Shown: positions 32,958-50,579, counted from the stretch's first letter. The stretch: DNA of 64,000 bases from Candidatus Moraniibacteriota bacterium (GCA_049303795.1 JBAQNM010000005.1:35228-99227), one strand, 5' to 3'. Translations and numbers: made by a program. The notes: generated by a model not told the origin, from the letters alone.

Positions 32958-32967
32958 AAATTTTTTA

Positions 32968-34359
<1,392 letters not shown>

Positions 34360-34450
34360 TTAAATTTTTACTTTATTACAATTTATTAAATTCTAATCAC
34401 TAGCTATTTGCTTTATTTTAGCCAAATATTCACTGATTAGGATTTAAGGG

Positions 34451-34479
34451 TTGACTCTTTAGCAAACTTGGAGTATATT
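34451..34479 (+). promoter_or_regulatory. Promoter of the orphan small gene in the atpG-atpD gap
   Basis: TTGACT (34451-34456), 17-bp spacer, TATATT (34474-34479). Confidence 0.6.
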
Positions 34480-34541
34480 TACATGATTTAATTCCATGTA
34501 ATTAATTTCACAAAAATTCTTTAAGAAAAGGAGATGTGACT

Positions 34542-34706
34542 ATGAAAAATTTTATTATTGGATTAGGATTGGGACATGCGTTGGAAGCACTTTATGTACT
34601 TACAATGAATGTGCCACGTGAAAGTTTGGTCACCATTGCAGTATGCTGCTTTGCAATTTCGGCAGCATTAATTTTCTCAAAATTTAGGGAAAAAATATTT
34701 GGTTAA
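34542..34706 (+). CDS. Orphan 54-aa small hydrophobic protein gene with its own promoter, RBS and terminator, antisense within the atp operon gap
   Basis: TTGACT-17-TATATT promoter at 34451-34479. AAGGAG 8 nt before ATG 34542. ORF MKNFIIGLGLGHALEALYVLTMNVPRESLVTIAVCCFAISAALIFSKFREKIFG. Then a 12-bp stem hairpin plus T8 (34732-34772). Confidence 0.6.
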   Translation: MKNFIIGLGLGHALEALYVLTMNVPRESLVTIAVCCFAISAALIFSKFREKIFG

Positions 34707-34731
34707 ACTTAATACATTATTTTTTCCCGAA

Positions 34732-34772
34732 GCCGCTGACTCATCTATACCATGAGTTGGCGGTTTTTTTTA
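34732..34772 (+). terminator. Intrinsic terminator of the orphan small gene
   Basis: GCCGCTGACTCAT-CTATACC-ATGAGTTGGCGG forms a 12-bp stem (two G.U pairs) followed by T8. Confidence 0.7.
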
Positions 34773-34795
34773 TTTTCAATTTTCCAAAGAACTTC

Positions 34796-34900
34796 TATTG
34801 TCTGAACCACTGATTAGCATGTGATTATCCTGATTACACTGAAATTTTAATTCAGTGAAATCATGTGAGCTCATGTGATAATCAGTGGTTCAGATTATTG
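34796..34900. mobile_element. MITE-like element: 16-bp perfect terminal inverted repeats flanking about 62 bp, bracketed by TATTG direct repeats, abutting the atpG stop codon
   Basis: TIRs TCTGAACCACTGATTA (34801-34816) and TAATCAGTGGTTCAGA (34879-34894). TATTG at 34796-34800 and 34896-34900. The interior holds nested palindromes and three CATGTGA copies. No other copy seen in the window. Confidence 0.35.
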
Positions 34901-35854
34901 TTCAAGCGCCGCCATCCCCGCACTAATCTCCGCAATCTCTTGAGTAATTTTCATTTGACGAATTTGATTGTAGGCCAAAGTGAAATCATCGGCCATTTCT
35001 TTGGCAGCGTCCGTAGCGTTTCGCATGGCAACCATTCGAGCGGATTCTTTAGAAGCATTGGATTCCAAAATTGCATGATAGATCTGCATTTCAATGAGAC
35101 GTGGGATAATGTGATCCAAAACTTCCGCTGGACTTGGTTCAACCTTATATTCAGATTTTGGCTTCTTAAGTCCATATTCTTCCGCCAAAACATCCATCTC
35201 AGCCAATTGTTTTTCTAAGTCAATTTTTGAAAGTGGCAAAATTTGGCGCACTTTTGTTTCTTGCTTGATAGCGGAAACATAATCGGTATAGAAAATAACT
35301 ACCTTGTCATATTTTTTGGCTAGATAATCATCAATTACGACTTTCCCCACCGCTCGCACGGCTTCAAATTTTGGCAGATAGGTCAAATCATTAAACGAAG
35401 CAACAATTTCATTGCCAGTTCTCTTGACTACATTCTCCCCTTTTCTACCCACAGTAATAAAATCGATTTTCAATTCTTCATCAGTAATTTTTGATTCAAT
35501 TTTTTTGGTGCCGATTCGATTTATTTTCAAATTTTTTGGGTTAGCCAATTCTTCTTTGATTTTTTTGGTCAGTTGAGAATTGAATGATCCACAAAGTCCA
35601 CGGTTCGAAGTAATGGCAATGGCCAAAACACTTTTCACTTCGCGTACTTCCAAAAGTCCACCTTGTTTTTTTTCAAACGAACGCGCCAAGTTTGTGAGCA
35701 CACTCCAAGCACTATGAGCATACGGACGAATTGCCAGCACACTCGAAATAGCCCGGCGCATTTTTGCCGCACTCACCATTTCCATCGCCCGAGTAATTTT
35801 TCCAGTGTTCTGGATGGATTTTATTCGTCTTTTGATTTCTTTACCTGAAGCCAT
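34895..35854 (-). CDS. atpG: F1Fo ATP synthase gamma subunit
   Basis: N-terminal MASGKEIKRRIKSIQNTGKITRAMEMVSAAK and C-terminal ITQEIAEISAGMAALEQ helices typical of gamma. 319 aa. Confidence 0.9.
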   Translation of the reverse strand: MASGKEIKRRIKSIQNTGKITRAMEMVSAAKMRRAISSVLAIRPYAHSAWSVLTNLARSFEKKQGGLLEVREVKSVLAIAITSNRGLCGSFNSQLTKKIKEELANPKNLKINRIGTKKIESKITDEELKIDFITVGRKGENVVKRTGNEIVASFNDLTYLPKFEAVRAVGKVVIDDYLAKKYDKVVIFYTDYVSAIKQETKVRQILPLSKIDLEKQLAEMDVLAEEYGLKKPKSEYKVEPSPAEVLDHIIPRLIEMQIYHAILESNASKESARMVAMRNATDAAKEMADDFTLAYNQIRQMKITQEIAEISAGMAALEQ

Positions 35855-35874
35855 AAAATAATTTAATAAAATTA

Positions 35875-37383
35875 TTAGTTTCCGTTTTGATATATATCCT
35901 TAAAATCTTTAATCACTTTTTCCAGTTTTTCGATTATATCTTGGGTCAATTCTTTCTTCTCGGCAATCAATGTCAAAACTTCCTTGGCGCTGGAATCTAA
36001 ATATCTTTGGAAATCCGCTTCCCAAGCCTTTATCTTTGAAACTTCCACGTCATCCAAAAATCCGTTCGTGAGAGCATAGAGAATCGCTACCTGGTTTTCC
36101 ATTAGCATCGGTGCATATTGATCTTGTTTCAAAATTTCCACTGTTCTTCGGCCTCGTTCAATTTGGCGACGAGTGTTTTCATCGAGATCTGATCCAAATT
36201 GCGCAAAAGCTTCCAATTCTCGAAATTGCGCCAAGTCCAAACGAAGTTTTCCGGCCACTTTTTTCATCGCCTTAGTTTGCGCGGCTGATCCCACTCGAGA
36301 AACAGATAGCCCCACGTTCAAGGCTGGACGAATTCCTTTATAGAAAAGATCGGATTCCAAATAAATTTGCCCGTCAGTAATGGAAATAACATTAGTTGGA
36401 ATGTAGGCTGAAACATCACCTGCTTGTGTTTCAATGATTGGTAAGGCCGTGATTGATCCACCACCAAAATCTTTGTTTAGTTTAGCACTTCGCTCAAGAA
36501 GTCGAGAATGCAAATAGAAAACATCTCCTGGATAGGCTTCGCGTCCTGGTGGGCGCTTCAAGATCAAAGAAATTTGACGATAACTCCAAGCATGCTTGGA
36601 AAGATCATCGTAAATTACCAAAACATCTTCGCCTTTATCCATAAAATATTCTCCCAATGCGCAACCGGAATATGGAGCAACAAAAGAAAATGCCGCTGGA
36701 TCAGAAGCACCCGCCAAAACAATCGTGGTATATTCCATTGCACCTTTCTTTTCAAGTTCCGCAACAATTCGAGCAATCTTAGATTCTTTTTGCCCAATGG
36801 CCACATAGATGCATTTCATATTTTGACCTTTTTGATTGATAATTGCATCAATCGCAATGGCAGTCTTTCCAGTTTGGCGATCCCCAATGATAAGTTCGCG
36901 TTGTCCGCGTCCAACTGGGATCATCGCATCAATAGCCTTGATTCCGGTTTGCACTGGTTGATTAACAGATTGTCGAGTGATAACTCCCGGAGCAATTTTT
37001 TCAATTGGATAAAATTTATCAGAAACGATTTCTCCTTTGCCATCAATCGCTTGCCCCAAAGGATTGATTACTCGGCCGATCATATTTTCGCCTACAGGAA
37101 TCGACAAAATTTTTCCAGTTGATTTTACCTGATCACCTTCTTTGATTCCTGAGAATTCGCCCAAAATCATCGCACCGATTTGACCCTCTTCCAAGTTGAG
37201 CGCCACACCAAAAATTTCATTTGGAAACTCCAGCATTTCCGAAGCCATCACATCAGAGAGGCCAGAAATTTTGGCCACGCCGTCTCCAACTTCAAGCACC
37301 GTTCCAACTTTTTCAATTTGTGATTTATTTTCGAAACCTTCGATTTGTTTTTTCAACTGATCGATAATATAATTTTTATCCAT
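35875..37383 (-). CDS. atpA: F1Fo ATP synthase alpha subunit
   Basis: Walker [10 protein letters not shown]. 502 aa. Conserved alpha C-terminal helical domain. Confidence 0.95.
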
Positions 37384-37403: not shown

Positions 37404-37805
37404 TTACTTAGTTAATTCTTTATTTAACTTTCTTAATTGCCCCTTAATACTCTGATCCAGAATATCGTCGCCCACTCTAATAATTATCCCCCCAACAACA
37501 TTCTCATCAATTTTTCTATTAATTAAAACTTTTTCTACTTTATATTTTCTTTTAATATATTCTTCAATTTTTTTCTCAGTCTCATCGTCCAGTTTTTCCC
37601 TGCTTATCAACTCCGCCTCAGCAACCTTATTTTTAATATTCCAAATACCATTAAAACTTTCCAAAATTTTTGGAAATAATTTACTTTGCCTATTTTTTCG
37701 AACAATTTGAGTAAAATTAAATACAGTCTTATCTACTTCTTGCGATGACTTATTTTCAGTTAACTCATAAAGGGTTCTCGCATATTGATTGGCAGTAATT
37801 TTCAT
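37404..37805 (-). CDS. atpH: F1Fo ATP synthase delta (OSCP) subunit, compact 133-aa form
   Basis: N-terminal ANQYARTLYEL and C-terminal VVGGIIIRVGDDILDQSIKGQLRKL match the delta/OSCP signature. Position between atpF and atpA. Confidence 0.7.
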   Translation of the reverse strand: MKITANQYARTLYELTENKSSQEVDKTVFNFTQIVRKNRQSKLFPKILESFNGIWNIKNKVAEAELISREKLDDETEKKIEEYIKRKYKVEKVLINRKIDENVVGGIIIRVGDDILDQSIKGQLRKLNKELTK

Positions 37806-37919
37806 AAACTATTTTTAATATCTTTATTATTCTTTCAATTCCTTTTTTTATTTTTTCTTTAAAATATCGTAACAGAGCACCTATTTATTATTTAGTAAAA
37901 TCACATAAAAGTCAACCTT

Positions 37920-38414
37920 CTAAATTTTCTCTTCTACGATCTTATCGATAGCCTCTTTATCATTCAATTTATCGATATTTTTTGTAATAATTTTTTCAGT
38001 AGCCAGCATTACAAGCCCTGCCACCTCACCTTTTGCCTCGTTTATTATTCTATTTTTCTCTTGAAGCGCTTTTTTCTCAGATGATTCCAATATTCTTCGT
38101 GATTCATCTTCGGCTTTTTTTATTATCTCTTCCTGATTTCTTTGTGCCAGTTCCGTAGAAGAACTCACTATTTTTTGTGCCTCTTTTTTAGCAGAAACAA
38201 TAATCTCCTTTTCTTTTTGATTAGCTTTTTCCAGTTTATCTTCAACTAGCCTTGCATTATTAAGCCCTCCTTCTATTTTTTTTCTTCGCTCATCAATAAA
38301 CTTTATAATTGGTCCGTATCCAAATTTATGCAATATCCAAACTAACAGACCAAAATTAATAAGTTGCGCCAATAAAATTTTCCAATTTAATCCCAAAGCT
38401 TCAAAAAGTTTCAT
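37920..38414 (-). CDS. atpF: F1Fo ATP synthase subunit b
   Basis: Single N-terminal TM (LLAQLINFGLLVWILHKFGY) then a long charged helix. 164 aa. Positioned between atpE and atpH. Confidence 0.8.
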   Translation of the reverse strand: MKLFEALGLNWKILLAQLINFGLLVWILHKFGYGPIIKFIDERRKKIEGGLNNARLVEDKLEKANQKEKEIIVSAKKEAQKIVSSSTELAQRNQEEIIKKAEDESRRILESSEKKALQEKNRIINEAKGEVAGLVMLATEKIITKNIDKLNDKEAIDKIVEEKI

Positions 38415-38496
38415 GTTTTTTTCTTAAAATATTATTATTAAAAAATAAATTAGTTCAGCCTTTTTTATTTCTAAAAAAAGCTAGACTATTTATCTC

Positions 38497-38733
<237 letters not shown>

Positions 38734-38762
38734 TTAAATTAATTATTTATTATTATTTAAAA

Positions 38763-39521
38763 TTAAACCCTAACCTCTTCTCTTTTCTCTTTTTTTTCAA
38801 TTTCACAGGCCATAGAAATAAATATCAGTGTCAAAAGAGAAAAAACAAATGCTTGAATAACAGCCGTCAGAAGTCCCAAAAAAGCAAATGGCAATGGAAT
38901 AATAAAGGGGGCGAGAAAAAGAATCACCGATCCCAAAACTTCACCAGCAAAAATATTTCCAAAAAGTCTGAATGACAAGGAAAGAACCTTGGCTATCTCT
39001 CCAATTAAATCCATAATGCCTAAAACAAAAGCCAGGGGGCTTTTAAAGTTGATGAATTTACCAATATAACCAAATGGGCCATGCACGAAAATTGTGACTA
39101 TTTGAACAGTTATAATCGATATCATTGTCAGAACAAATACCATACCATAATCTGACATAATCGCTCTAAATGGAACGATATCTCCATTTTTAGTGTGAAT
39201 CAAGACTGCGGCTTGTCCTGGAATAAATGTGATGAGATTGGCAAAAACAATAAAAATAAACATAGTAAAGATCAAAGGGAAAACCCTTCGCGCCTTCTCT
39301 TTGTTTCCCATGATACTTTCAACCAACCTCATCCCCTCTTCGATGAGAAGCTCTAGGACAGCCTGCGCTCTTCCAGGAACTGCCTTAAGAGAAAAACGCA
39401 TAGCCAGTGTGATAACAATCAAAATTACACTTAAAATAACTGACCAAAATAAAGTATTAGTCACCGGCAAAGAGCCTAGATTGAAAAGTATTTGAGGAGC
39501 AAGAGATATGTCTAGTTTCAT
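38763..39521 (-). CDS. atpB: F1Fo ATP synthase subunit a
   Basis: Conserved FRLFGNIFAGEVL with the essential Arg. 252 aa polytopic. Confidence 0.9.
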   Translation of the reverse strand: MKLDISLAPQILFNLGSLPVTNTLFWSVILSVILIVITLAMRFSLKAVPGRAQAVLELLIEEGMRLVESIMGNKEKARRVFPLIFTMFIFIVFANLITFIPGQAAVLIHTKNGDIVPFRAIMSDYGMVFVLTMISIITVQIVTIFVHGPFGYIGKFINFKSPLAFVLGIMDLIGEIAKVLSLSFRLFGNIFAGEVLGSVILFLAPFIIPLPFAFLGLLTAVIQAFVFSLLTLIFISMACEIEKKEKREEVRV

Positions 39522-39527
39522 ATAAGA

Positions 39528-39782
39528 TTATTTCTTAGTTGCTTTGCTTTTATCTAGAACCATCTTTTTTGATAAAACATTTCGCTTTTTGAAAAGCAAG
39601 ACATTTGAAACCAAAAAAGAAATTCCGATGCTTATAAGTAAAAATTTCGGACTGGAGTTAAAATTTCTATCTGCGACGTAACCGATTACTCCCAAAAAAA
39701 TCATTGGACCAAAAATATACATACCGCTATATGTCGCTACTTTAAAAAATATCTTCATAACTTTTTCGTCTTTAAAAAACAT
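39528..39782 (-). CDS. AtpZ/AtpI-like small membrane protein (ATP synthase protein I family)
   Basis: 84 aa with two TM helices. GPMIFLGVIGYVADRNFN pattern. Immediately upstream of atpB. Confidence 0.5.
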   Translation of the reverse strand: MFFKDEKVMKIFFKVATYSGMYIFGPMIFLGVIGYVADRNFNSSPKFLLISIGISFLVSNVLLFKKRNVLSKKMVLDKSKATKK

Positions 39783-39964: not shown

Positions 39965-40003
39965 CAAAAAAACGGTGTCTTGGAAATAATACCAAAACAC
40001 CGC
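39965..40003 (-). terminator. Terminator at the end of the Ehr-like operon, before the canonical atp operon
   Basis: Minus strand: CGGUGUUUUGG-UAUUAUUU-CCAAGACACCG then UUUUUUUG. 10-bp stem with one mismatch. Confidence 0.55.
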
Positions 40004-40038: not shown

Positions 40039-40959
40039 TTAATCAAAGCGGACAAATTGAATCTTTGTATCATTATCAATTAGTCGGGCATAAACCTTAA
40101 CAACCCTCACATGAGGATATTTTTTAAGAATTTTATGCTCAAATATATACATTTGATTTCGCTGAAATATTTCTTCGTCAAACCCATTGAGAGATTTGAT
40201 AATCCCCTTATATGCACCACAATCAGCATGCTGCAATATATAGACAGTTTTACATCCATGCCTTTCGATTGCCACCTTGAGCGCCTTCCAGGAAACCATC
40301 GCTCCTTTCAAAAAACTCTGCGCAGATCCGGGTATTCCAACAAGATCAAGTGCTTGAATTTTAAATGAATCACGAATACAAAGTCGCGATTCTTTTCTAA
40401 ATCTAAAATCCAAGCACAGAACTAAAACCGCCTCACATTTATATACGCCTCTAAACCAATAAGGAGCAACCATTCTAACCGACTCCTTGCCATTATCAAA
40501 AACTTCAACTAGTTCAACTTCGGTGTTTTCTCTTATCAAGCGAGCATATATCGCTCGAACCTCTTTTTTCGGATAATCTCTCCTGATTTTTAACATTGAT
40601 GCAATGAGGCCTTTTTTGTGAAAATAATCCTCCTCAAAACCACTATCAAATCTCGTAGATCTCCCGCCGTTGTGAAAATCTACATGCTGGAAAAGAGTAA
40701 CGAGTTCTATGTTGTGTTTTTCTATTGAAAGCTTGAGTGTTTCCAGAACAGTATTACTTTCAGAAAGAAAGTTTTTTGAAAAAGCCGGAATTCCCAATAA
40801 GTCGAAAGATCTTACCCCAAGTGAATAATCCATGCATTGAAGCATTACCGAAGAAAAATTGAAACTAATCGGCATTGCCATAATTGCTTTGCAATTATGT
40901 ATTTTTTTGTACAAAAACGGAACTGTCGCCAATACTTCTCCATTCAGATTATTATCCAA
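40039..40959 (-). CDS. Tandem-duplicated beta-carbonic-anhydrase-like protein: degenerate N-terminal half, apparently intact C-terminal zinc site
   Basis: Internal repeat, N-terminal half versus C-terminal half: LGIPAFSKNFL...LKLSIEKHNIELVTLFQHVDFHNGG...VRAIYARLIRENT versus LVGIPGSAQSFL...LKVAIERHGCKTVYILQHADCGAYKG...VVKVYARLIDNDT. The C-terminal half has CLDFR (CxDxR) and, 62 residues later, HADCG (HxxCG). The N-terminal half has these ligands replaced (MAMPISF, HVDFHNGG). TTG start with GAAGGAG 7 nt upstream. Confidence 0.5.
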   Translation of the reverse strand: MDNNLNGEVLATVPFLYKKIHNCKAIMAMPISFNFSSVMLQCMDYSLGVRSFDLLGIPAFSKNFLSESNTVLETLKLSIEKHNIELVTLFQHVDFHNGGRSTRFDSGFEEDYFHKKGLIASMLKIRRDYPKKEVRAIYARLIRENTEVELVEVFDNGKESVRMVAPYWFRGVYKCEAVLVLCLDFRFRKESRLCIRDSFKIQALDLVGIPGSAQSFLKGAMVSWKALKVAIERHGCKTVYILQHADCGAYKGIIKSLNGFDEEIFQRNQMYIFEHKILKKYPHVRVVKVYARLIDNDTKIQFVRFD

Positions 40960-41070
40960 TTCAACGCTCCTTCTTTATCATCATTTGTTAAATAACCAAA
41001 TTGAAAACTATGCCCAATGCATAGTCTCCCCCTTCTTCTATTTTAAATTAATATTTTCTAATTTTCATAT

Positions 41071-42633
41071 CTACAAATCGTTTCCGGAATACGACAAATT
41101 CAAACTCTTATTGATAAGCGGAAAATCAGGCACGATGTTGCCCGGTCCCATAATGCCAAAAAGTGCCCAATTACAAAAGGATGGATCACGCGGATAGCAT
41201 CTTTCGATCACACCATTCTTAATTTGCAAGGCACAGATTATTTCTCCTCTCCAAGATTCCACGGCACCAATCGCAAAACCATTCTTAACTTCGCATTTTT
41301 CAAAAACATCTCCTTCTCCTATTTTTTCCACTAAAGTTTTGAGTAAAATTATCGATTGTTCAATTTCTTTTATTCTCATTCTATAGCGAGCAAAAACATC
41401 AGTGCTTTTTTTGGTAATAACTTTAATTGGGAACTCTGCATATGAAGCATAAGGATGATCTCTTCTGACATCACGATCAACTTTGGAAGCACGCGCCGGT
41501 AAACCGACAGCCCCAAAAGCCTCAGCTGCCTCCTTGGGAAGTTCGCCCGTGTATTGCAACCGATCCAAAAAGCCCTCGCTATCCAGAGCAATTTCCACAA
41601 TTTTGTCTATTTCCTTAAAAACCCCTTGCGACACCACTAGTATTTTTTCTAAATTCTCCTTCTTAATATCACCTTTCATTCCTCCTGGAACAATCATCCC
41701 CCGCCAAAAACGATTACCACAAATATCAGCTGACAAGCGCATCATCCTTTCTTTAATGCGAAATCCATTGGCGGCGATAAAACTATACCCTGTTCCCATT
41801 CCTCCAATATTAGAAAGATCATGTGCATGCATTGTAATTCTTTCACATTCAGTGAGGATGGCTCGCAAAATTTGTGCTCTTTTTGGCACCGTGCAGTCGC
41901 TAATTTTCTCCACCGCTTGCGCATAGGCCAAAGAATGTGAAGCACTCATATCGCCAGAAATTCTTTCAATAAAGGGCAAAGCCTCGTTGATATTTTTTCC
42001 TTCCAATAATTTCTCCACTCCCTTATGAGTAAAAAATAATTTTCCTTCCAAAGTCAAGATTCTTTCTCCTGCCACATTAAAACAAAAATGTCCCGGCTCA
42101 ATAATACCAGCATGAATCGGTCCGACAGGAATTTCCATCACTCCCTCGCCTGTTACATGATGCATCGGATAAGGAACATTATCCTTGGACAATTTCGTAT
42201 TCCACTGAAAATCTTTTCTTAAGGGGTGTGTATTTTCTGGGATATTTTCATGATGCACCAATCTTCGCAGATCCGGATGTCCCACTGGCGTGATACCAAA
42301 CATATCGCGCAAATATCTTTCATACCAATGAGTTGCCATGATTGTTTTTGTCAAAGCCGGATACTGCGGATCGCTAGCCGGCACTTCGGCTGAAATTTTC
42401 AGCCATTTGCTTTCCTGATCCAAACTAAAAACAACGTGCACGACAAAATTTCCGGTTTCCTTGCGATTATCTGTTCCGAAAAGAAGAGACAGTGGAAGTT
42501 TATCCTCCTGGAATAACTCGGTGGAGATTTGCGCTAAATCGTTTCGAGAAACTTTAATACTCACCAAATCACTCCCTTCCTCAATACTAAGAATTTTTTC
42601 TTTGAATTTTTTAATAATTTCTTGAGTTTTCAT
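41071..42633 (-). CDS. Fused NuoC/NuoD-type large subunit of a group-4-hydrogenase-related (Ehr-like) complex, lacking [NiFe]-binding cysteines
   Basis: N-terminal NuoC-like part. Then GPIHAGIIEPGHFCFNVAGERILTLEGKLFFTHKGVEKLLE, the HycE/NuoD signature. Candidate L1 position reads ERISGDMSASHSLAY (no CxxC). C-terminal DPSFCNWA has one Cys instead of DPCxxC. Confidence 0.75.
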   Translation of the reverse strand: MKTQEIIKKFKEKILSIEEGSDLVSIKVSRNDLAQISTELFQEDKLPLSLLFGTDNRKETGNFVVHVVFSLDQESKWLKISAEVPASDPQYPALTKTIMATHWYERYLRDMFGITPVGHPDLRRLVHHENIPENTHPLRKDFQWNTKLSKDNVPYPMHHVTGEGVMEIPVGPIHAGIIEPGHFCFNVAGERILTLEGKLFFTHKGVEKLLEGKNINEALPFIERISGDMSASHSLAYAQAVEKISDCTVPKRAQILRAILTECERITMHAHDLSNIGGMGTGYSFIAANGFRIKERMMRLSADICGNRFWRGMIVPGGMKGDIKKENLEKILVVSQGVFKEIDKIVEIALDSEGFLDRLQYTGELPKEAAEAFGAVGLPARASKVDRDVRRDHPYASYAEFPIKVITKKSTDVFARYRMRIKEIEQSIILLKTLVEKIGEGDVFEKCEVKNGFAIGAVESWRGEIICALQIKNGVIERCYPRDPSFCNWALFGIMGPGNIVPDFPLINKSLNLSYSGNDL

Positions 42634-42644
42634 AAAAAATTTTT

Positions 42645-44123
42645 CTATTTAATGAATAAGAAGGTGCTTACTATATTTTCAATCAACTCTATTGAGCTTC
42701 CAATTGTGAACCACCAAGCTAAAAATATCAGAATTATAATTTCTATAACAATTATCGTGTGAGTACTATTCCATTTTTCTTTTTTAATTTTATCCTCCTC
42801 TTTTTCCTCTTGAGTATCAAAAACCATACTAACCGTCAAGAGTAACATCGCATAAGCAATTATTCCCAGAGCAATAAACAAGAAAATGGAAAGCACTGGA
42901 TAAAGAACAATCGCTTGTGAAAAAATTCCATATTCACTTACAAATAGGGCGGACGGTGGAATGGCAATAATCGCTACGATACCAAGAATAAAAAGAATGC
43001 TAGTATATTTTGAATACTTAAACATGTTTTTTATCTTGAATACTTTTGTTGTTTTCCACTTAAGCAAAATCTCGCCTGCTCCGAAAAATAAAGCTGACTT
43101 AGCAAAAGTGTGACCAATCATATGCATAACTCCAGCCATTGCGCCTACAGGAGAAAGTCCCAAGGAAAAAACAACCAAACCCATATGCTCAACACTGGAA
43201 TAAGCTAACATTCTTTTGTAATTCTTTTGAATAAGTATCATAAAAGTTGCCAGTAGTATAGAAAAAAATCCGAAAATCAAAAATAAATTATTAGTCCAAG
43301 CTGGATCCATAAAAGCACTGTCAGTGATAAATTTGAAACGTAAAATAGCATACAAAGCAACATTCAATAACACGGCGGAAAAAATAGCGGAGATCGGAGA
43401 TGGAGCTTTACTATGAGCATCCGGAAGCCAAGTATGCATTGGTGCCAAACCAACTTTTGTGCCAAAACCGATAAACAGAAAAATGAAAGCTAATTTTAGA
43501 ATATCTTTTGGAATAAGATGGGCGTTTTTAGTTAGATTATCCAAAAGGAAAATATTTCCTTCCTCCATTCCACCAACATGAGCGCCATAGCTAAAAAGCA
43601 AAATACCAATCAATCCCAAACTAATACCAGTTGAGCAAAGAACCATATATTTCCAAGCCGCTTCCATGCTTATTTTCTTGCGATATAATCCGACTAAGAA
43701 AGTTGAGGAAAGAGTTGTTCCCTCCAAAAACAACCAGAGCAAAAGAGTATTATTTACCAAAACAGTCAAGATCATGCACAAAACAAACAATTGAAACAAG
43801 ACAAAATATTTTTTATAGTCTGAAAAATTAATTACTTTTTCCTCATACTCATGCCCAATATAACGAACACTGACAATTGTAGAAAAAATATAAATAATGG
43901 AAATAAGCGTTATCATTAATGCTGAAAAATAATCCAGTTGCCACCAAGAACCAACTATTTTATTTTGAGAAAGAAATAGAAAAAATAAAGCAGAAAAAGA
44001 TAGTGCTGACCCGCCAATTAAAGAAAAAAATAAATTGCTCCATCTTACTATTTTTTCAGTTTTTGCCACTGCTGAAAAAATGGCGGCTAATATAAATGGG
44101 ATAATTAAAATAGTCATATTCAT
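42645..44123 (-). CDS. Proton-pumping antiporter-like subunit (NuoM/NuoN/MrpD/HyfD family)
   Basis: 492 aa with 14 predicted TM helices. GLAPMHTWLPDAHSKAPSPISAIFSAVLLNVALYAILRF core motif of the Proton_antipo_M family. Confidence 0.8.
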   Translation of the reverse strand: MNMTILIIPFILAAIFSAVAKTEKIVRWSNLFFSLIGGSALSFSALFFLFLSQNKIVGSWWQLDYFSALMITLISIIYIFSTIVSVRYIGHEYEEKVINFSDYKKYFVLFQLFVLCMILTVLVNNTLLLWLFLEGTTLSSTFLVGLYRKKISMEAAWKYMVLCSTGISLGLIGILLFSYGAHVGGMEEGNIFLLDNLTKNAHLIPKDILKLAFIFLFIGFGTKVGLAPMHTWLPDAHSKAPSPISAIFSAVLLNVALYAILRFKFITDSAFMDPAWTNNLFLIFGFFSILLATFMILIQKNYKRMLAYSSVEHMGLVVFSLGLSPVGAMAGVMHMIGHTFAKSALFFGAGEILLKWKTTKVFKIKNMFKYSKYTSILFILGIVAIIAIPPSALFVSEYGIFSQAIVLYPVLSIFLFIALGIIAYAMLLLTVSMVFDTQEEKEEDKIKKEKWNSTHTIIVIEIIILIFLAWWFTIGSSIELIENIVSTFLFIK

Positions 44124-44145
44124 AAAAAATTGGATGTTAAAAAAA

Positions 44146-45747
44146 TTATTGTTCGGTTAATTCACATAAATCTTCCGTATCCGCGCTTCCGCATAAATCA
44201 TTTATTTGACCGCTTAGTATCGATAAAATATAGGCCGTGGCCACCGTTACAGTAAAGATGCCAAATTCAATCATGATTGGCAATGAGCCCACGGTTGCCA
44301 AAACAAAAATAGCAATCCCGTTTTCTATCACTAGGAGTCCAACGACTTGAGAGAAAATATTTCTTTTAACAATCATCATCGTTATGCCTAAAAGAATTGA
44401 AGTGACTGAAGCATAAAGTAATGAATCCCATTCTACTAACCCCACGACAGAAACATTTCCCAAAATAAAATAACTCGCGATTAAAATAATAATGGCTAAA
44501 AAATAACTCTTTCCTGGACGTAAAAAAGAAGGCAGATTTGTTAGACTTTTCTTAGCATGACTGGAATGATTAATCACATAAGGCACAACTAAAACTTTGA
44601 TTACGATTGTGAAAATGGCAAATATCCATAAATGAATTTTTTCTTCTTCACCTACCAAAGAAATGAGTCCCCAAGCAATTCCAGCAATAGCCAAAGACGA
44701 AAAAGCATAATAACGCAAAATCGCTCTCAAGCGGACTCGACCGAAAAGAAGCACGATGCAAACTACAGTAAAAAGAGAAAACAAAGCGTGGCATTGCAAA
44801 GATATTTTCATAAATGTTGTCAGAAAAGCCACGATCATTCCCAAAAATGCCACAGCAAAAGCCACGGAAAAATATTCTGACATTCTGTAAAATCGCATCT
44901 TAACCAAAACAGATTCCAAGAAAGCCAAAAATCCCATTGCCACAATAATTTTTATCAACGCAAAAAATAAACTGCTCATAAAAATACCCGCACTCCAAGA
45001 GGATACTCCCATTAAAGTTCCGGGGAAGATAAAATTAGCCACTAGCAAAGAAAAAACTGTCAATTTTATAGCAGAGGCATATTCCAATAAAGCCAGATAC
45101 TTGCCGGAATATTCCAGTATCATCGCTTCATGCACCATTGTGAGCTCTAAATGAGTAGCGGGATTGTCCACGGGATAACGAGCATTTTCTGCCAACGCCA
45201 CTAAAATCAAAGCAATGATTGTCAAAATTAAATATGGCTCAAAAAAATCGATTCGATCAAGAAGCATTCCGTTAATGGTTGACTCTTTAGTGACAAAACT
45301 AATCGTAGAAAAAACCATAATTATCACCGGCTCCAAAAGAGCACTGATAGTCATTTCCCGACTTGAACCCATTCCGCCAAAAGCGCTACCAGCATCCAAT
45401 CCCCCCAACACTAAAAATATTGACCCAACAGACAACACTCCCGCTACCACTAAAAAATCACTGAGAGCCATTCCGCTAGCATTAGTAAAAATAAGCGGGA
45501 GAATCACCACCAAAAAAACTGCGCTTCCGAAAACCACAAACGGCACTATCCGAAAAACCCAAGAAGTCACATTTGATATGACCATTTCCTTTTTTAGTAA
45601 AGTAGCAAAAGTAACATATGGCAAAAAAGGCGAAGCACCTTTTCTCCCCTGAAGACGAGCTTTGAGAAAACGGACCAAGCCTGAAGCGAAAGGAGCGACA
45701 GCTAAAATGAAAATAATTTGAATTAATGTAGAAATTACTATGTTCAT
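44146..45747 (-). CDS. HycD/NuoH-like membrane subunit fused to an additional C-terminal membrane domain (HyfE-like?)
   Basis: N-terminal LVRFLKARLQGRKGASPFLPY matches the NuoH/HycD RMQ.R.GP motif. 533 aa is about 220 aa longer than NuoH, with an extra polytopic C-terminal half. Confidence 0.65.
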   Translation of the reverse strand: MNIVISTLIQIIFILAVAPFASGLVRFLKARLQGRKGASPFLPYVTFATLLKKEMVISNVTSWVFRIVPFVVFGSAVFLVVILPLIFTNASGMALSDFLVVAGVLSVGSIFLVLGGLDAGSAFGGMGSSREMTISALLEPVIIMVFSTISFVTKESTINGMLLDRIDFFEPYLILTIIALILVALAENARYPVDNPATHLELTMVHEAMILEYSGKYLALLEYASAIKLTVFSLLVANFIFPGTLMGVSSWSAGIFMSSLFFALIKIIVAMGFLAFLESVLVKMRFYRMSEYFSVAFAVAFLGMIVAFLTTFMKISLQCHALFSLFTVVCIVLLFGRVRLRAILRYYAFSSLAIAGIAWGLISLVGEEEKIHLWIFAIFTIVIKVLVVPYVINHSSHAKKSLTNLPSFLRPGKSYFLAIIILIASYFILGNVSVVGLVEWDSLLYASVTSILLGITMMIVKRNIFSQVVGLLVIENGIAIFVLATVGSLPIMIEFGIFTVTVATAYILSILSGQINDLCGSADTEDLCELTEQ

Positions 45748-47735
45748 AAGGCAAATATTAAAGTGATAGTTAGGGCAAGCAAAAGAAACAAAATATAATA
45801 TTGAATTCGACCACTCTGGATAAAGCGAATCTTTTCCGCCATCAAGAATAATCCCCTTGCGATCGGAGCATACAGCGCATCACTCCAAATTGAACGAATA
45901 GACAATTGAAATTTATATTTTCTAATCCATTGATTTGTTTCTATTACAGCATCTGATTGCATAACTTTTTTTCTGCCAATAAAAGTAAGAAAGAAAAATC
46001 TTATCGGTGCAGAAAAAGCCGTAGCGCTATATTGCATAGTAGCATCAATCGGTTGACCGCAATCCCAAGTATTATAAAATCTTTCTTTTTTATTTTTTAA
46101 TAAAATTTTCTGAAAAACATAAATTAATATTCCAAAAATAATGATAACCGCACTAATTGAGAGCGAAGAAATATTCACTGGAATTTCAGAAAAAGAAACT
46201 TGACTTGAAAACGAAGACTGGATATGTGAAACGATATTGGTAATGAAAAAATTAGCCAAAATTGCAAAAATAATCAATCCGCCAGCTAAAAACAATATTG
46301 GCAAGATCAAAAGAAAATCCAAATTTTCTTTTCTTTTTTCCATATGAGTATTATGAGGTAATCCCAACATCGAGATGCCAAATATTTTTATCATGGCAAA
46401 AATAGCTAACCCGCTGATCATCGCCACTAGAGAAAGGGTGGTAATTAGTAGCATAACGGTATTTGAACTAATTCCCGGTTCGTTCATTAAAGCTAGGATA
46501 TTTTGAATTAAACCCCATTCTCCATAAAAAGTTCCGAATGCTGGTAATGGCAAAGATCCCAAAATAGACAAAAGAAAAACAAAACTAAAGATAGGCATTA
46601 ACTTGGCGATACCACCCATCACTTCCAAGCTTTTAGTATGCACCCTATTTATTATCACTCCACTGGAAAGAAAAAGAGCAGTTTTAAACAAAGCGTGATT
46701 CATCGCATGAAAAATTGCAAAAGCGATTATGGAGTACGCGATTATTTGATAATCTTTCAGGGCTAGCAAATAAATAGCTAAACCTAGCATTGTAAAAATA
46801 ATTCCCATGTTTTCTATACTGCTATAAGCAAAAGCTTTTTTAATATCTCTTTCCACTACCGCATATAAAACGCCAATCACTCCCGACAAAAGACCTAGGA
46901 TAAGTACGATAATGCCTGCCCATCCGGGGATGCAACAGAAATTCAAAATAATCATAATAAAGCCATAGACAGCCACTTTCAACATCAGTCCACTCATCAT
47001 TGCTGAAATATTACTTGGTGCTTGAGGATGAGCCTCAGGAAGCCAAACATGAAAAGGCACCAATCCTGCCTTGGAACCAAAACCAAAAACAAATAAAAGA
47101 AAAGCTAAATTCAAAAGTCCCGGAGATAGATTCCGAGAAGCCTCATTAATATTGTCAAAATTAAAAATAAACTCTCCAGAGCCCAAAATCAAAAATCCAC
47201 CCAAAATTGCTGAGGCCCCCAAATGAGTCATTATGAAGTATAAAAAAGCCGCCTTGATTGATTCAGGTTTTTTATCAGAGAAAACCAAGAAAAATGAAGT
47301 TATCGACATTACCTCCCAAAAAAATAAAAAAGCGAAAGAGTTGTTAGAAAGCAACACCCCTTGCATACCCAAGACAAATCCGGACATCAAAAATTGAACT
47401 GTGCGAGGGTTATAATCGTTCTTATAAAGCTCAAGGTAGCGCAAACTATAAATTCCCACCAAAGAGGAAACTCCACTTATGATAGCGAAGAAAATAGCAC
47501 TCACAAAATTCAATCTCGGAGCAAACTCAAAAAACCAATTAAAATTAAACAGTGTGAAATTGCCAGTGGAAAAGAAAAATAAATATCCTAAAGAAGACAA
47601 AAATCCAATTCCATTGGAAAGGATGAATAATTTTGTTCCGCCATTAAAAGGCTTGCCAAAAAAAGCTAGCACAGCCGACGAGATCAAGCCAATCAAATAG
47701 ATTCCTATTCCAAAAATAATATAATTTTCCAACAT
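45744..47735 (-). CDS. Proton-pumping antiporter-like subunit, long form (NuoL/MrpA/HyfB family)
   Basis: 663 aa. GLVPFHVWLPEAHPQAPSNISAMMSGLMLKVAVYGFIM core. Long C-terminal extension as in NuoL/MrpA. 4-nt overlap with the next gene. Confidence 0.8.
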   Translation of the reverse strand: MLENYIIFGIGIYLIGLISSAVLAFFGKPFNGGTKLFILSNGIGFLSSLGYLFFFSTGNFTLFNFNWFFEFAPRLNFVSAIFFAIISGVSSLVGIYSLRYLELYKNDYNPRTVQFLMSGFVLGMQGVLLSNNSFAFLFFWEVMSITSFFLVFSDKKPESIKAAFLYFIMTHLGASAILGGFLILGSGEFIFNFDNINEASRNLSPGLLNLAFLLFVFGFGSKAGLVPFHVWLPEAHPQAPSNISAMMSGLMLKVAVYGFIMIILNFCCIPGWAGIIVLILGLLSGVIGVLYAVVERDIKKAFAYSSIENMGIIFTMLGLAIYLLALKDYQIIAYSIIAFAIFHAMNHALFKTALFLSSGVIINRVHTKSLEVMGGIAKLMPIFSFVFLLSILGSLPLPAFGTFYGEWGLIQNILALMNEPGISSNTVMLLITTLSLVAMISGLAIFAMIKIFGISMLGLPHNTHMEKRKENLDFLLILPILFLAGGLIIFAILANFFITNIVSHIQSSFSSQVSFSEIPVNISSLSISAVIIIFGILIYVFQKILLKNKKERFYNTWDCGQPIDATMQYSATAFSAPIRFFFLTFIGRKKVMQSDAVIETNQWIRKYKFQLSIRSIWSDALYAPIARGLFLMAEKIRFIQSGRIQYYILFLLLALTITLIFAL

Positions 47736-47741
47736 ATAGTT

Positions 47742-48284
47742 TTATTTTATTCTTCCGTCTTTTAAAGCGTTTAGAATTCCAGTTAAAATATCTGTCGGTG
47801 TCGGAGGATCGCCTGGAATTTTAATATGCACCGGAATCACATTTTCCACCGGCCCCACTACCGCATAGGAATCCTTCCAAATTCCTCCATCGCAAGCTCC
47901 ATCTCCAATAGCCACCACAATACAAGGCTTTGGGACAGCTTCATAGGTCGTCAGCAAGGCTCTTTCAAGATTTCTAGTTACTGAACCACTAACAAACAAA
48001 ATATCGGCGTGACGCGGAGATGCTACAAAACTCAAACCAAATCTATCAATATCATAATAAGCATTGCCAAGAGCAGTCAGTTCTATCTCTTCAGCATTTG
48101 TCGAACCGGCGTCCACTGCTCGAATACGCAATGATCTGCCACCATAAAGATTTTTGATAATATCTTTTATTTCTTTTCCGGTTTTTTCAAAAGTAGCTTT
48201 TTTTTCGGATAAGAAAAAATCCTCTTTCTTTTGGGTAACTTTTTTTCCAAACAATAATATATTTATTAGTCCTAAAGTTTTCAT
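47742..48284 (-). CDS. NuoB/hydrogenase-small-subunit-like protein lacking 3 of 4 Fe-S cysteine ligands
   Basis: RFGLSFVASPRHADILFVSGSVTRN...PKPCIVVAIGDGACDGG is strongly NuoB-like. The CCxxE motif reads AVDAGSTNAEE and PGCPP reads PGDPP. Confidence 0.8.
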   Translation of the reverse strand: MKTLGLINILLFGKKVTQKKEDFFLSEKKATFEKTGKEIKDIIKNLYGGRSLRIRAVDAGSTNAEEIELTALGNAYYDIDRFGLSFVASPRHADILFVSGSVTRNLERALLTTYEAVPKPCIVVAIGDGACDGGIWKDSYAVVGPVENVIPVHIKIPGDPPTPTDILTGILNALKDGRIK

Positions 48285-48366: not shown

Positions 48367-48394
48367 ATATTACTCTTCCGAATAAAAATGTCAA
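48367..48394 (-). promoter_or_regulatory. Candidate promoter of the Ehr-like operon in the atpF2-nuoB-like gap
   Basis: Minus strand: TTGACA (48394-48389), 16-bp spacer, TAATAT (48372-48367). Confidence 0.45.
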
Positions 48395-48458: not shown

Positions 48459-48947
48459 CTAGAGCATAGCTTTTTCAATTATTTCTTTGTCTTTTTGAGA
48501 ATCTAATTTTTCATAAATTATTTTTTCCGTAGCCACTATAACTAAATTAGCAATCTCCGCTCTTACTTCAGAAAGCATTTTTGTCTTCTCTTGATCAATA
48601 TTCTCCTTAGCATCTTCAATCATTTTCTTATTCTGTTCTTTTGCCTGATTTAGCACATCTTCAGAAATCCTGATCGCATCCTCCCTGGATTTTTTGATAA
48701 TTTCCTGCGCTTCCTTCTTGGCTACTGTTAATACTTCTTTTTCCTGTAAAGTTATTTCTTCTAATTTTTCCGAGGCCTCCTTGGAATCTTTGAGACCTTT
48801 CTCGATCTTTCTTGTTCTGTCGTTGAGTGTTTTTAGAATCGGTTTATAGGCGAATTTATACAACACTAAAAGAACAATGATAAAATTTACCATTTGTGCC
48901 AGAAGCAAATTAATCTCAATGTGAAATGTTTTTATTAGTTCATCCAT
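48459..48947 (-). CDS. Second copy of F-type ATP synthase subunit b
   Basis: 162 aa. N-terminal TM (LLAQMVNFIIVLLVLYKFAY) then a long charged helix. Same LLAQ..NF..L motif as atpF at 37920-38414. Confidence 0.7.
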   Translation of the reverse strand: MDELIKTFHIEINLLLAQMVNFIIVLLVLYKFAYKPILKTLNDRTRKIEKGLKDSKEASEKLEEITLQEKEVLTVAKKEAQEIIKKSREDAIRISEDVLNQAKEQNKKMIEDAKENIDQEKTKMLSEVRAEIANLVIVATEKIIYEKLDSQKDKEIIEKAML

Positions 48948-49024
48948 AAAAATAAATTTATAATTTTTAATTCTATAACAATCTCATTTCGATTCCGTCG
49001 AAACGGAACCAAAGAAAACTACTA

Positions 49025-49249
<225 letters not shown>

Positions 49250-49328
49250 TTATTTTAGAAGTCGACTCGATTTTTTATTTTAAAGTCGCTTGAAAAATAA
49301 AATTTAAAAAAATTAATTAACTAAAAAA

Positions 49329-50180
49329 TTAATGCTCTGCGTGACTTTCTGAGGCTATTGTCATAAAAACCATTGTGAGTATCGCAAATATGAGAGCCTG
49401 AATTATTCCAACAATTATCTCTAAAAACATAAATGGTAACGGCAGAAAATAAGCAAAAATAGCCATCATCGAAGCTAAAAGTACTTCGCCAGCAAAAATA
49501 TTTCCAAAGAGCCTGAAGGTAAGAGAGGCTGTTTTTGCCACCTCGCCAATAAGCTCCACAATACCCACAAAAGCTTTAATTGGATTGACAAGTATTATGG
49601 AAAAATCTTTTTTTATCTTTCCTGGAATTTCCAAGAATGCTTCAAAATTAATAAATTTATTCAGATGTTTCCAAATTCCAATTGCTAGAATTCCCGCAAT
49701 ATGAGAAGCAACAATTGCGAAAAGTGCCAAAGCCAATGTAGTGTTGATGTCGGCCGTAGCCCCTCGAAGAATCGGCACAAAAACTCTATGCACTCCGTCA
49801 ACTTCGTTAAAACCGATTGTTCCAAAGCCTGGCAAAAGCCCGAGCCAATTATTCACTAAAATAAATAGAAAAAGGGCTAGCGAAATTGGCAGAAACTTTT
49901 CAGTCTTTTTCCTCTCTCCGGTGATGCTATCTCCCAACTCTAAGGCTTTTTCAAGAATTATTTCAAAAATATTTTGAATTCCATCAGGAATCCTTTTGAG
50001 TTTTTTGCCGGCTAGAATGAAAACAACAACTAGAATAAAAACTGCTATCCAGCCAGAAATCAAAGAATTGGTAACAACAAATTCGCCAATATGAAAAACC
50101 GGCTCAGCAAATAAAGTTGCCTCGTGAGAAAACTCCTGATTCAAATTTCCATTATTATTTTGTGGTTGATGTTCTGCCAT
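49329..50180 (-). CDS. Second copy of F-type ATP synthase subunit a
   Basis: FRLFGNIFAGEVLLASMMAIFAYFLPLPF with the essential Arg. 283 aa. Confidence 0.85.
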   Translation of the reverse strand: MAEHQPQNNNGNLNQEFSHEATLFAEPVFHIGEFVVTNSLISGWIAVFILVVVFILAGKKLKRIPDGIQNIFEIILEKALELGDSITGERKKTEKFLPISLALFLFILVNNWLGLLPGFGTIGFNEVDGVHRVFVPILRGATADINTTLALALFAIVASHIAGILAIGIWKHLNKFINFEAFLEIPGKIKKDFSIILVNPIKAFVGIVELIGEVAKTASLTFRLFGNIFAGEVLLASMMAIFAYFLPLPFMFLEIIVGIIQALIFAILTMVFMTIASESHAEH

Positions 50181-50183
50181 ATA

Positions 50184-50465
50184 TTATTTTTTTGATATTA
50201 CATTCTTTCTTTTTTCCTCATCCTTATTCTCGATTCTTTTCATCTCCTTAATTGCATCTCTTGTTATTCCCACTGTTGAAATAATAAAAGCAAATCCGAT
50301 ACAAAGAAGAAATAGCCATGGCTCAGTTTTATATTTTTTATCCAACCACCTACCAATAAAAAGAGCAAAAATAACTGGCCCTGCAATCCAACCAGAAAGT
50401 CGATAAAATAAAACCAAACCTGGCTGCCACCAAGGCGCCGTAGATTTTTGTTTTTCTTTTTCCAT
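50184..50465 (-). CDS. AtpZ/AtpI-like small membrane protein preceding the second Fo gene set
   Basis: Start taken at internal MEKEKQK. WWQPGLVLFYRLSGWIAGPVIFALFIGRWLDKKY resembles the AtpZ pattern of 39528-39782. The track ORF extends to 50528. Confidence 0.45.
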   Translation of the reverse strand: MEKEKQKSTAPWWQPGLVLFYRLSGWIAGPVIFALFIGRWLDKKYKTEPWLFLLCIGFAFIISTVGITRDAIKEMKRIENKDEEKRKNVISKK

Positions 50466-50579
50466 ATTGAAAAAATATTTAGTATATAAATCAATATATA
50501 TTGTGAAGCAGGATTGCGAAAATGTCAATGGTCTGAAATTTTTTAAAATCCTTTTTTAGGTTTCGCTAAGCATGAAAAT

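Follow-up and report, generated by a model that had tools for sequence, protein, structure and literature searches.

Here we describe a cluster of six consecutive minus-strand genes at positions 40039–48284 of a 64,000-nt stretch of DNA (the window throughout) from Candidatus Moraniibacteriota, a groundwater bacterium with a tiny genome. Judged by its genes and its relatives, the cluster is a member of the candidate phyla radiation (CPR) branch of the energy-converting-hydrogenase-related (Ehr) family, whose members are descendants of group-4 (Hyf-type) membrane hydrogenases minus the [NiFe] site. Here the ligands of the small-subunit iron–sulphur (Fe–S) cluster have gone as well, and the genes lie inside the operon of the F-type ATP synthase (atp). 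The likeliest of the functions considered here, to which we give about an even chance, is that the CPR Ehr is a redox-independent cation/proton translocator working with the F-type ATPase.

We know of no studied member of the complex I family that does not use redox chemistry, and there is still debate over the way in which the peripheral arm of complex I and related complexes powers ion translocation. A branch that keeps the whole coupling apparatus under selection without cofactor ligands is a natural ‘redox-free’ version in which coupling could be studied, and it bears on how membranes are energised in CPR bacteria, where an F-type ATPase is present and a respiratory chain is absent.

The gene cluster

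Genes were assigned by Pfam and NCBIfam profile searches of the open reading frames (ORFs), which returned the same six genes, at the same positions and with the same identities, as the original prediction, an earlier reading of this DNA (lengths in amino acids, aa):

47742–48284, minus strand: NuoB/HyfI-like small subunit, 180 aa (PF01058, E 1e-23)
45744–47735, minus strand: HyfB/NuoL/MrpA-like antiporter-type subunit, 663 aa (PF00361 + PF00662; NF005086, hydrogenase 4 subunit B, E 6e-140)
44146–45747, minus strand: HyfC/HycD/NuoH-like part (aa 1 to ~310; PF00146, E 8e-28, residues 9–306) fused to a HyfE/NuoK-like part (aa ~332–533)
42645–44123, minus strand: HyfF/NuoM/MrpD-like antiporter-type subunit, 492 aa (PF00361; NF005044, hydrogenase 4 subunit F, E 1e-102)
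41071–42633, minus strand: fused NuoC-NuoD / HycE-HyfG-type large subunit, 520 aa (PF00329 + PF00346 + PF00374)
40039–40959, minus strand: tandem beta-carbonic-anhydrase-like protein, 306 aa (PF20393 Pro_CA_2, two stretches, 60.6 bits against a cut-off of 30)

The gaps between these ORFs range from -4 to 111 bp, and two signals, both assigned as pattern matches to consensus, frame them:

48367–48394, minus strand: promoter-like site TTGACA-16-TAATAT, in the 174-bp gap between atpF (b1) and the NuoB-like gene (consensus scan only)
39972–40003, minus strand: intrinsic-terminator-like hairpin, 12-bp stem plus T-run, 36 nt after the stop codon of the carbonic anhydrase (CA) gene (consensus scan)

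The hairpin is the strongest in the 13.5-kb region scanned and would delimit the six-gene unit on the CA side, so that in the window the CA gene is probably co-transcribed with the Ehr genes. Dozens of genomes carry the same cluster, with five or six genes, and it is therefore not a chance pattern. The original prediction had also seen an extra membrane domain on the NuoH-like protein; this domain is, by profile comparison, a fused HyfE, since residues 332–530 match HyfE (NF008556, E 9e-17), with a weak match to PF00420 (NuoK). Outside the inner CPR clade the HyfC and HyfE parts are separate genes.

Loss of the cofactor ligands

The large subunit aligns end to end with Escherichia coli HycE (7z0s_E, E 8e-75), and also with MbhL and Nqo4. 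At the first ligand motif (L1), HycE RVCGICgfAHS corresponds to R224-I-S226-G-D228-M229-S-A-S-H233, and at the second (L2), HycE SLDPCYSCTD corresponds to S510-L-N512-L-S514-Y-S-G517-N-D at the extreme C-terminus. All four Ni/Fe cysteines are thereby replaced (S226, M229, S514 and G517) relative to both HycE and MbhL, and in the same way across the clade. The original prediction was right that L1 lacks its cysteines; its conclusion that the C-terminal DPCxxC motif is lost also stands, but not its mapping, because the DPSFCNW stretch that it named (residues 483–489) aligns with HycE ‘aatyanw’ and the true equivalent of L2 is NLSYSG. Eight cysteines occur in the large subunit and none is conserved among relatives, so there are no ‘shifted’ ligands, the presence of which would have spoken against the Ehr assignment.

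In the NuoB-like protein the ligand columns were checked against MbhJ, HycG and the PSST subunit of complex I. GSCNGCDIE becomes G-S-T62-N-A-E65-E-I-E, AIGAC becomes AIGDG129 and PGCPP becomes PGD159PP, and all four ligand positions of the proximal [4Fe-4S] cluster are thus replaced (T62, E65, G129 and D159), as had been predicted. The nearby C131 is Cys or Ile in relatives, which disposes of a shifted ligand in this subunit too.

No ORF for a 2x[4Fe-4S] ferredoxin-like subunit, with two CxxCxxCxxxC motifs, was found in the operon or within 1.5 kb of it at any Fe–S-less locus, and the tight gene spacing leaves no room for one; a hidden ferredoxin ORF was ruled out on these grounds, and the earlier statement that no NuoI/HycF gene is present holds. 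Genes for hyp maturation factors and for the C-terminal endopeptidase were not seen among the ORFs scanned within the 64-kb window, which is part of a contig of at least 355 kb. The quinone positions of complex I are not kept either: Nqo4 Tyr87 and His38, which we take to be the quinone ligands in the Thermus thermophilus structure, correspond to Gly227 and Ile178 of the window's large subunit, and the N2 ligands are absent from the NuoB-like protein. Since the [NiFe] site, the [4Fe-4S] ligands and the ferredoxin or electron-input subunit are all lost, the peripheral arm is without a known redox cofactor. These column-by-column alignments agree with the earlier conclusion that neither [NiFe] nor the proximal Fe–S cluster can be bound in the usual way and that this is hence no conventional redox enzyme.

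The replacements are a signature of the family. In most of 150 cluster representatives L1 reads R-[IV]-S-G-D-x-[ST]-x-[AS]-H and L2 reads SFNLSY[SA]GNDL, and the residues of the former NiFe pocket are invariant down to 38% identity. Cys-bearing relatives of the large subunit (RICGVC ... ELCYSC) turn up at 38–43% identity.

Placement in the Ehr family

A protein annotated from a Candidatus Moraniibacteriota metagenome-assembled genome matches the CA protein at 100% identity, which bears out the CPR origin suggested earlier, and the large subunit has relatives at 61–94% identity in Moranbacteria, Falkowbacteria and other Parcubacteria. A neighbour-joining tree was built from 209 large subunits with a HycE-like root (a distance method, rough and without support values). 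In it all 172 Cys-less sequences group together in a single clade, to which none of the 30-odd Cys-bearing ones belongs, and the window's large subunit falls within a 20-member CPR subclade of that clade. The sister group of this subclade (Acidobacteriota, Chloroflexia, Rokubacteria and Binatia) likewise has NuoB first in its gene order. The cluster thus combines a group-4/NuoD-type large subunit free of NiFe ligands, NuoB-, NuoH- and antiporter-like partners, and a Cys-less placement, as the proposed Ehr class would have it; it does not fall among bona fide hydrogenases. The Ehr class is already known, as is the monophyletic, cysteine-less CPR clade, which was reported by Jaffe et al. 2020 (PMC7304191).

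What sets the CPR members apart is the small subunit. Among 95 loci compared, every non-CPR Ehr keeps GSCNxCExE / GxC / PGCPP, and 14 of 70 non-CPR Ehr have a 2x[4Fe-4S] module, either separate or fused to NuoB. The window's clade reads GSTNAEEIE / GDGA[CI] / PGDPP, and a second Fe–S-less clade (clade II) reads GS[TD]NACEQE / GDDAIDGG / PGDPP, on contigs labelled Daviesbacteria, Falkowbacteria, Saccharibacteria, ‘Endomicrobiales’ and ‘Thermoleophilia’. Since only CPR-type clades are without Fe–S ligands and non-CPR Ehr retain them, full ligand loss is a derived state. The two Fe–S-less clades stand apart in the rough tree, yet they have the PGDPP and GD[GD]A (Cys-to-Asp) replacements in common, and this conflict would be compatible with either one loss or two. 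All sequences are from metagenome-assembled genomes or metagenome contigs, the taxon labels of some contigs may be wrong, and the counts given here and below come from small, non-random samples of loci; a metagenome scan with a single protein yielded 11 close loci only. Two Nitrospirota contigs (L026:4826-19895 and L082:10-14024; L-numbers such as L001, L100 and L102 denote loci of relatives) each carry two complete tandem Ehr operons with the Fe–S ligands intact in both.

Several of these features are apparently new: the derived loss of Fe–S ligands from the small subunit, the fact that this loss goes together with atp linkage, and the HyfC–HyfE fusion, as well as the insertion of Ehr and CA together with a Na+-type Fo/delta set, the slot after atpC that takes CAs of several classes, and the findings that the peripheral subunits are the most constrained and that the ion channels have kept their buried charged residues unchanged. 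The Fe–S-less state, the gene order, the HyfC–HyfE fusion and the atp placement go unmentioned in the main text of Jaffe et al. 2020 (PMC7304191), and no papers linking CA genes to CPR atp operons, or on an Fe–S-less small subunit, were found in the searchable literature, outside which many subscription papers lie.

Selection and ion-translocation residues

The ratio of nonsynonymous to synonymous substitution (dN/dS) was estimated against the orthologous operon of the close relative L100, a single comparison in which dS is near saturation and the values are approximate. It is 0.07 for the NuoB-like subunit, 0.08 for the large subunit, 0.11 for HyfF, 0.12 for HyfB and 0.13 for HyfC–E, or about 0.1 over the 2,386 codons of the five subunits. 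Read from these codons, the genes have stayed intact under strong purifying selection, and a pseudogene or relic is ruled out by the range of 0.07–0.13. The strongest constraint falls on the two peripheral subunits that lost their cofactors.

The membrane arm keeps its charged residues. In HyfB, E141, K222, K253, K351 and E406 show no variation across the CPR clade and are conserved in at least 93% of other Ehr, and in HyfF, whose best solved matches include MbhH, MbsH and MrpD, E134, K223, K342 and E397 are invariant. HyfC D118, E139, K228, K266 and E278 and the HyfE-domain residues E475 and E494 are likewise invariant or nearly so, and the NuoH-like part aligns to HycD and MbhM, including the E-rich loop between transmembrane helices (TM) 5 and 6 (..HLELTMVHEAMILEYSG..). 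These buried charged residues do not vary within the clade and hardly vary across Ehr as a whole; the ion-translocating apparatus is thus intact, with the buried Glu, Lys and His of the complex I, Mbh and Mrp ion paths kept.

Linkage to the ATP synthase operon

The original prediction had placed the cluster next to Fo genes. The adjacency is real, but it understates the arrangement, in which the cluster is embedded in an atp operon together with a second, divergent Fo/delta set. The order in the window is MetRS – TatD – atpI1 – a1 – c1 – b1, then NuoB through the large subunit to CA, then atpI2 – a2 – c2 – b2 – delta, and finally alpha – gamma – beta – epsilon – DUF4349. The atp genes are as follows:

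48459–50528, minus strand: native Fo, with an atpI-like protein, a (283 aa), c (70 aa, H+-type ..AFAEAVAIY..) and b (162 aa) (ORFs; MetRS–TatD–atpI synteny with L102)
37404–39782, minus strand: second Fo/stator set, with an atpI-like protein, a (252 aa), c (75 aa), b (164 aa) and delta (133 aa), downstream of CA and divergent from relatives
32517–37383, minus strand: native F1 alpha, gamma, beta and epsilon (ORFs; high identity to L102)

In the window's Fe–S-less clade, the Ehr operon has atp genes as its immediate neighbours at 10 of 15 distinct loci, mostly in the order atpA-G-D-C followed by NuoB. They also adjoin it in two of the six clade II loci, L017, with the usual order, and L013, a Daviesbacteria contig whose Ehr genes run antisense between atpD and atpC and split the atp operon in an independent way (L013:2983-21394). 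The operon thus takes three positions: it may follow atpC, stand in opposite orientation between atpD and atpC, or separate atpF from atpH, the last being that of the window and unique among the loci seen. None of the ~60 Ehr loci that retain Fe–S ligands has atp neighbours, and Fe–S loss thus coincides, across the loci sampled, with atp linkage.

This pattern bears on whether the complex is still a redox enzyme, with an unrecognised cofactor or substrate in the Ser/Asp/His/Asn pocket or with electrons from a partner encoded elsewhere, such as a formate dehydrogenase. The depth to which the pocket residues are conserved fits such an idea. Since non-CPR Ehr retain Fe–S ligands, and some a fused or adjacent 2x[4Fe-4S] module, the ancestral Ehr was probably redox-active, and a formate dehydrogenase has been proposed as the Ehr partner in Margulisbacteria (PMC6349859). 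In the window's clade, however, every Fe–S ligand is now Thr, Glu, Gly or Asp and there is no ferredoxin-like ORF, which leaves no wire from a donor to the pocket; the loss of Fe–S goes with the gain of atp linkage, and ORF and profile scans found no oxidoreductase gene in the operon. We consider continued redox activity improbable.

The two Fo sets of the window have different histories. L102, a relative with a plain atp operon and the same upstream synteny, served as the identity reference. The native genes match it closely (a1 83%, c1 97%, b1 73%, alpha 93%, gamma 96%, beta 93% and epsilon 83%), in contrast to the inserted set (a2 31%, c2 48%, b2 39% and delta 49%). From this contrast, Ehr, CA and a foreign stator/Fo set form a block that was inserted in the native operon and replaced delta. 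Between themselves the sets are 32% (a1/a2), 49% (c1/c2) and 38% (b1/b2) identical, and a recent duplication or an assembly artefact as their source is ruled out by these values. The window accordingly has two Fo/stator sets and a single F1 gene set, with the native delta missing.

The c subunits also differ in their ion sites. The motifs ..GPAIGEG.. and ..ITESTGIY.. of c2 follow the E..ESTxxY pattern, and among solved structures c2 comes closest to the Na+-binding c subunits of A. woodii, F. nucleatum and I. tartaricus; c1 (..LAIGKIG.. and ..AFAEAVAIY..) is without the Ser/Thr pattern. On established knowledge of c-ring ion sites we take c2 to be of the Na+ type and c1 of the H+ type.

The tight embedding in atp operons, together with the duplicated stator set in the window genome, could also mean that Ehr is an accessory or structural partner of the ATP synthase, acting in assembly, anchoring or Fo regulation, or even a decaying relic without transport. 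Neither fits the low dN/dS over the whole set of subunits or the invariance of buried charged residues that would have no role outside ion translocation, and one third of the loci are not near atp genes at all. This explanation strikes us as very improbable.

At the end of the atp/Ehr/CA string a DUF4349 membrane protein recurs (window 31401–32408; L032:11613-12566; L086:11678-12634; L103:19060-20037). The borders of the atp operon in relatives (L105:6000-9701 and the JGI 3300075153 locus) hold integrase, reverse-transcriptase and Y1 transposase genes, and such mobile-type genes may be the cause of the frequent rearrangement of the atp neighbourhood.

The carbonic anhydrase gene

The sixth protein is an internal duplication in which only the C-terminal half has the zinc and catalytic motif of beta-CAs, C182-x-D184-x-R186 ... 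H244-x-x-C247-G-A-Y, which is invariant in an alignment of 23 homologues; the N-terminal half is degenerate (PISFNF / QHVDFH). The AlphaFold2 model has a mean confidence (pLDDT) of 90.6, and its top Foldseek matches are 1ddz, the internally duplicated beta-CA of Porphyridium, and 2fgy and 9g4t, which are carboxysomal CsoSCA, all with probability 1.00 and a TM-score of ~0.5. With a Cys-His-Cys zinc site, an Asp-Arg dyad and a predicted beta-CA fold, the protein is a likely beta-class CA.

Of the 15 loci in the window's clade, 6 have a CA-type gene, from one of two beta-type families, beside Ehr. A tandem Pro_CA_2 gene follows the large subunit in the window and in L004, and a CsoSCA-like gene follows it in L001 and precedes NuoB in L084, L093 and L100 (L100:3209-4231). 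A CA-type gene also stands just after atpC in all seven of the Ehr-free atp operons of relatives that were sampled, through a1 or CA homologues. There it is an iota-CA family gene (SgcJ/EcaC, with the (H)HHSS motif) in L102:18003-18425; Pro_CA_2, single and tandem, in L103:17501-18966, L104:18855-19834, L106:3189-4662, L107:9060-10930 and one JGI contig; and Pro_CA_2 with a gamma-CA-like protein in L105:17607-18748 (CcmM/Cam models, E 1e-43 to 1e-46). Four unrelated CA classes, Pro_CA_2, CsoSCA-like, gamma-CA-like and iota-CA, thus share the slot after atpC in the related Moraniibacteriota sampled, whether or not Ehr is there.

The idea of a CA specific to Ehr was rejected on account of these Ehr-free relatives, and so was its converse, that Ehr always carries a CA, in view of the many Ehr loci without one nearby. 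Since CA is anchored to the ATP synthase operon even where Ehr is missing, it is not demonstrably an Ehr subunit; the original prediction was correct in describing a tandem CA-like protein within the operon, which is tandem PF20393 and looks co-transcribed. That unrelated CA classes swap in the atp slot argues for a need of CA activity near the ATPase rather than for a dedicated Ehr subunit.

An energy-coupled (vectorial) CA has to be weighed at this point. Here the CA would dock on the complex and ion flow would push the hydration of CO2, or the dehydration of HCO3-, in one direction, on the model of DAB (DabA/DabB) or the cyanobacterial NDH-1MS CupA module, leading to accumulation of inorganic carbon or, conversely, to an ion gradient drawn from CO2/HCO3- disequilibrium. 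There are two precedents for a CA coupled to NuoL-type subunits (DAB1, preprint 10.64898/2026.05.01.722082; NDH-1MS, PMC6981117). The consensus signals that put CA within the Ehr transcription unit in the window, the two beta-type families flanking Ehr in the clade, a complete beta-CA site in the C-terminal half with a modelled fold like that of pseudo-dimeric beta-CAs, and the SulP/STAS transporter or malic enzyme that follows the operon in clade II are all consistent with it. DabA and CupA, however, are dedicated and strictly co-encoded, and the profile search of the window returned no PF10070 or Cup homologue. The exchange of the CA among unrelated classes and its shifting position point to a soluble activity and not to a docking partner, and its place after atpC in relatives without Ehr there, like its absence near many Ehr loci, tells against docking too. 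We therefore think vectorial coupling unlikely.

The clade II genes just mentioned are a SulP/STAS anion transporter (L028:11519-13180, Endomicrobiales-labelled) and a malic enzyme (L019:11628-12776, Saccharibacteria), both tied to bicarbonate/CO2 chemistry. Two other neighbours were looked at as CA candidates. A 185-aa protein after the operon in L002 and L003, with CGD ... HYPC, was rejected as a short beta-CA, scoring 3.4 bits against the Pro_CA_2 profile (not significant) and matching no Pfam or NCBIfam family. In L107:9060-9857, between atpC and the tandem CA, a 265-aa protein with VCSDGR and HEECGA motifs, also without a Pfam or NCBIfam match, may represent a further divergent CA family.

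Comparison with known systems

Other Ehr (Nitrospira, Acidobacteriota, Thaumarchaeota, Firmicutes and others) resemble the window's cluster in having a group-4-type large subunit without the Cys pairs and NuoB-, NuoH- and NuoL/M-like partners. They differ in keeping the small-subunit Fe–S ligands, often with a ferredoxin module, and in a gene order of HyfB-C-E-F-large subunit-NuoB that never adjoins atp genes, whereas the window's cluster has lost the Fe–S ligands, starts with NuoB, joins HyfC and HyfE in one protein and is inside an atp operon.

The best match of every subunit is to E. coli hydrogenase 4 (HyfABCDEFGHI) or formate hydrogenlyase (Hyc; PDB 7z0s), namely HyfB, HyfC/HycD, HyfE, HyfF, HyfG/HycE and HyfI/HycG, and the fused NuoC-NuoD large subunit and the GPxHxxxxEPGHF loop are held in common. 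Unlike these enzymes, the window's cluster is without NiFe ligands, Fe–S ligands, the HyfA and HyfH ferredoxins and HyfD, and no formate dehydrogenase or hyp genes are in view. Group 4 [NiFe]-hydrogenases in general (Hyc, Hyf, Mbh and Ech) have the L1 and L2 Cys pairs, four small-subunit cysteines and a ferredoxin of the HycF/HyfH/MbhN/EchF type, and the window's cluster has none of these.

With the membrane arm of Mrp and Mbh/MBS (PDB 6cfw, 6u8y and 7qru) the cluster shares two MrpA/D-type subunits and the pattern of TM5 Glu, TM7 Lys and TM12 Glu-Lys, and Mrp needs no redox input. Against the seven-subunit Mrp set (MrpA–G), however, the window has only the MrpA/D-like proteins (PF00361 twice) and a NuoK/MrpC-like domain, with no matches to MrpB, E, F or G, and it adds a NuoH-like subunit and a full, highly conserved NuoB/NuoCD cap; an Mrp-like way of working is thus something we infer.

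DAB (DabA/DabB) and NDH-1MS CupA are similar in that a beta-CA-type zinc site is encoded beside NuoL-type proton-translocating subunits, but the window's CA is PF20393 and neither DabA (PF10070) nor CupA, is interchangeable with other CA classes, and is atp-linked even without Ehr; docking is unsupported. Complex I (Nuo/Nqo) has homologous NuoB, C, D, H, K-like and L/M subunits and the NuoH coupling loop; by comparison the window's cluster is without the quinone Tyr/His, the N2 cluster and NuoA, J, I, E, F and G.

Possible function

The whole picture is built by comparison of metagenome-assembled sequence. Under the translocator reading with which we opened, a membrane arm of the Mrp/Mbh type would be driven by ion gradients, or would interconvert them, in one circuit with the F-type ATPase. 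Na+/H+ exchange of this kind would interconvert the H+ and Na+ gradients that the ATPase makes or uses, in a fermenter that lacks a respiratory chain, and it is plausible because Ehr travels with an extra Na+-type Fo/delta set in the window genome. The former NiFe pocket (E179, S226, D228, H233, N512 and S514) might then be a protonation- or ion-sensitive gate or coupling element rather than a redox site, of which the beta1–beta2 loop and the NuoH loop could be part, and CA would supply or remove H+ and HCO3- for the circuit of ATPase and antiporter, a physiological coupling and not a fixed subunit. The reading draws on the loss of ligands, the Cys-less placement, the low dN/dS, the kept ion residues, the atp linkage, the Na+-type c2 and the replaceable CA, all of which suggest it from comparative data.

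Several points weigh against the translocator. A plain antiporter of the Mrp type can do without a peripheral arm, whereas here that arm is conserved above all other parts, and its role as a gate or coupler is a guess on our part. Ion specificity is judged solely from an adjoining c subunit, and that in a single genome. Within the clade, atp neighbours are missing at one third of the loci and an adjacent CA at about half; HyfF has Asn254 in place of the TM8 Lys, a replacement found in most Ehr; and a non-cysteine cofactor, or a soluble redox partner encoded outside the 64-kb window, is possible. Reviews up to 2023 call the function of Ehr unknown.

A bolder and, in our view, rather unlikely proposal is that the CPR Ehr is a complex-I-type converter that switched to a non-redox driving reaction, whose former NiFe pocket couples protonation, the binding of ions or CO2/HCO3- chemistry to Na+/H+ translocation, and which with a Na+-capable F-ATPase and CA forms a minimal chemiosmotic circuit. 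If it were true, such a circuit would let respiration-less, host-dependent bacteria make or use an ion gradient, and the coincidence of Fe–S loss with recruitment into atp operons would mark the switch away from redox. For a family that has been functionally open since 2013, the joint Fe–S loss and atp linkage, the Na+-type Fo companion and the CA of four classes beside the atp operon all provide leads.

Other features of the window

No Rfam family, tRNA, rRNA and riboswitches included, reaches its gathering score across window positions 1–64000. The GC content rises locally to 0.44 at 27900–30000, compared with ~0.34 elsewhere, and this segment coincides with the gene for a 496-aa LysM-domain protein that is syntenic in L106 and L107.

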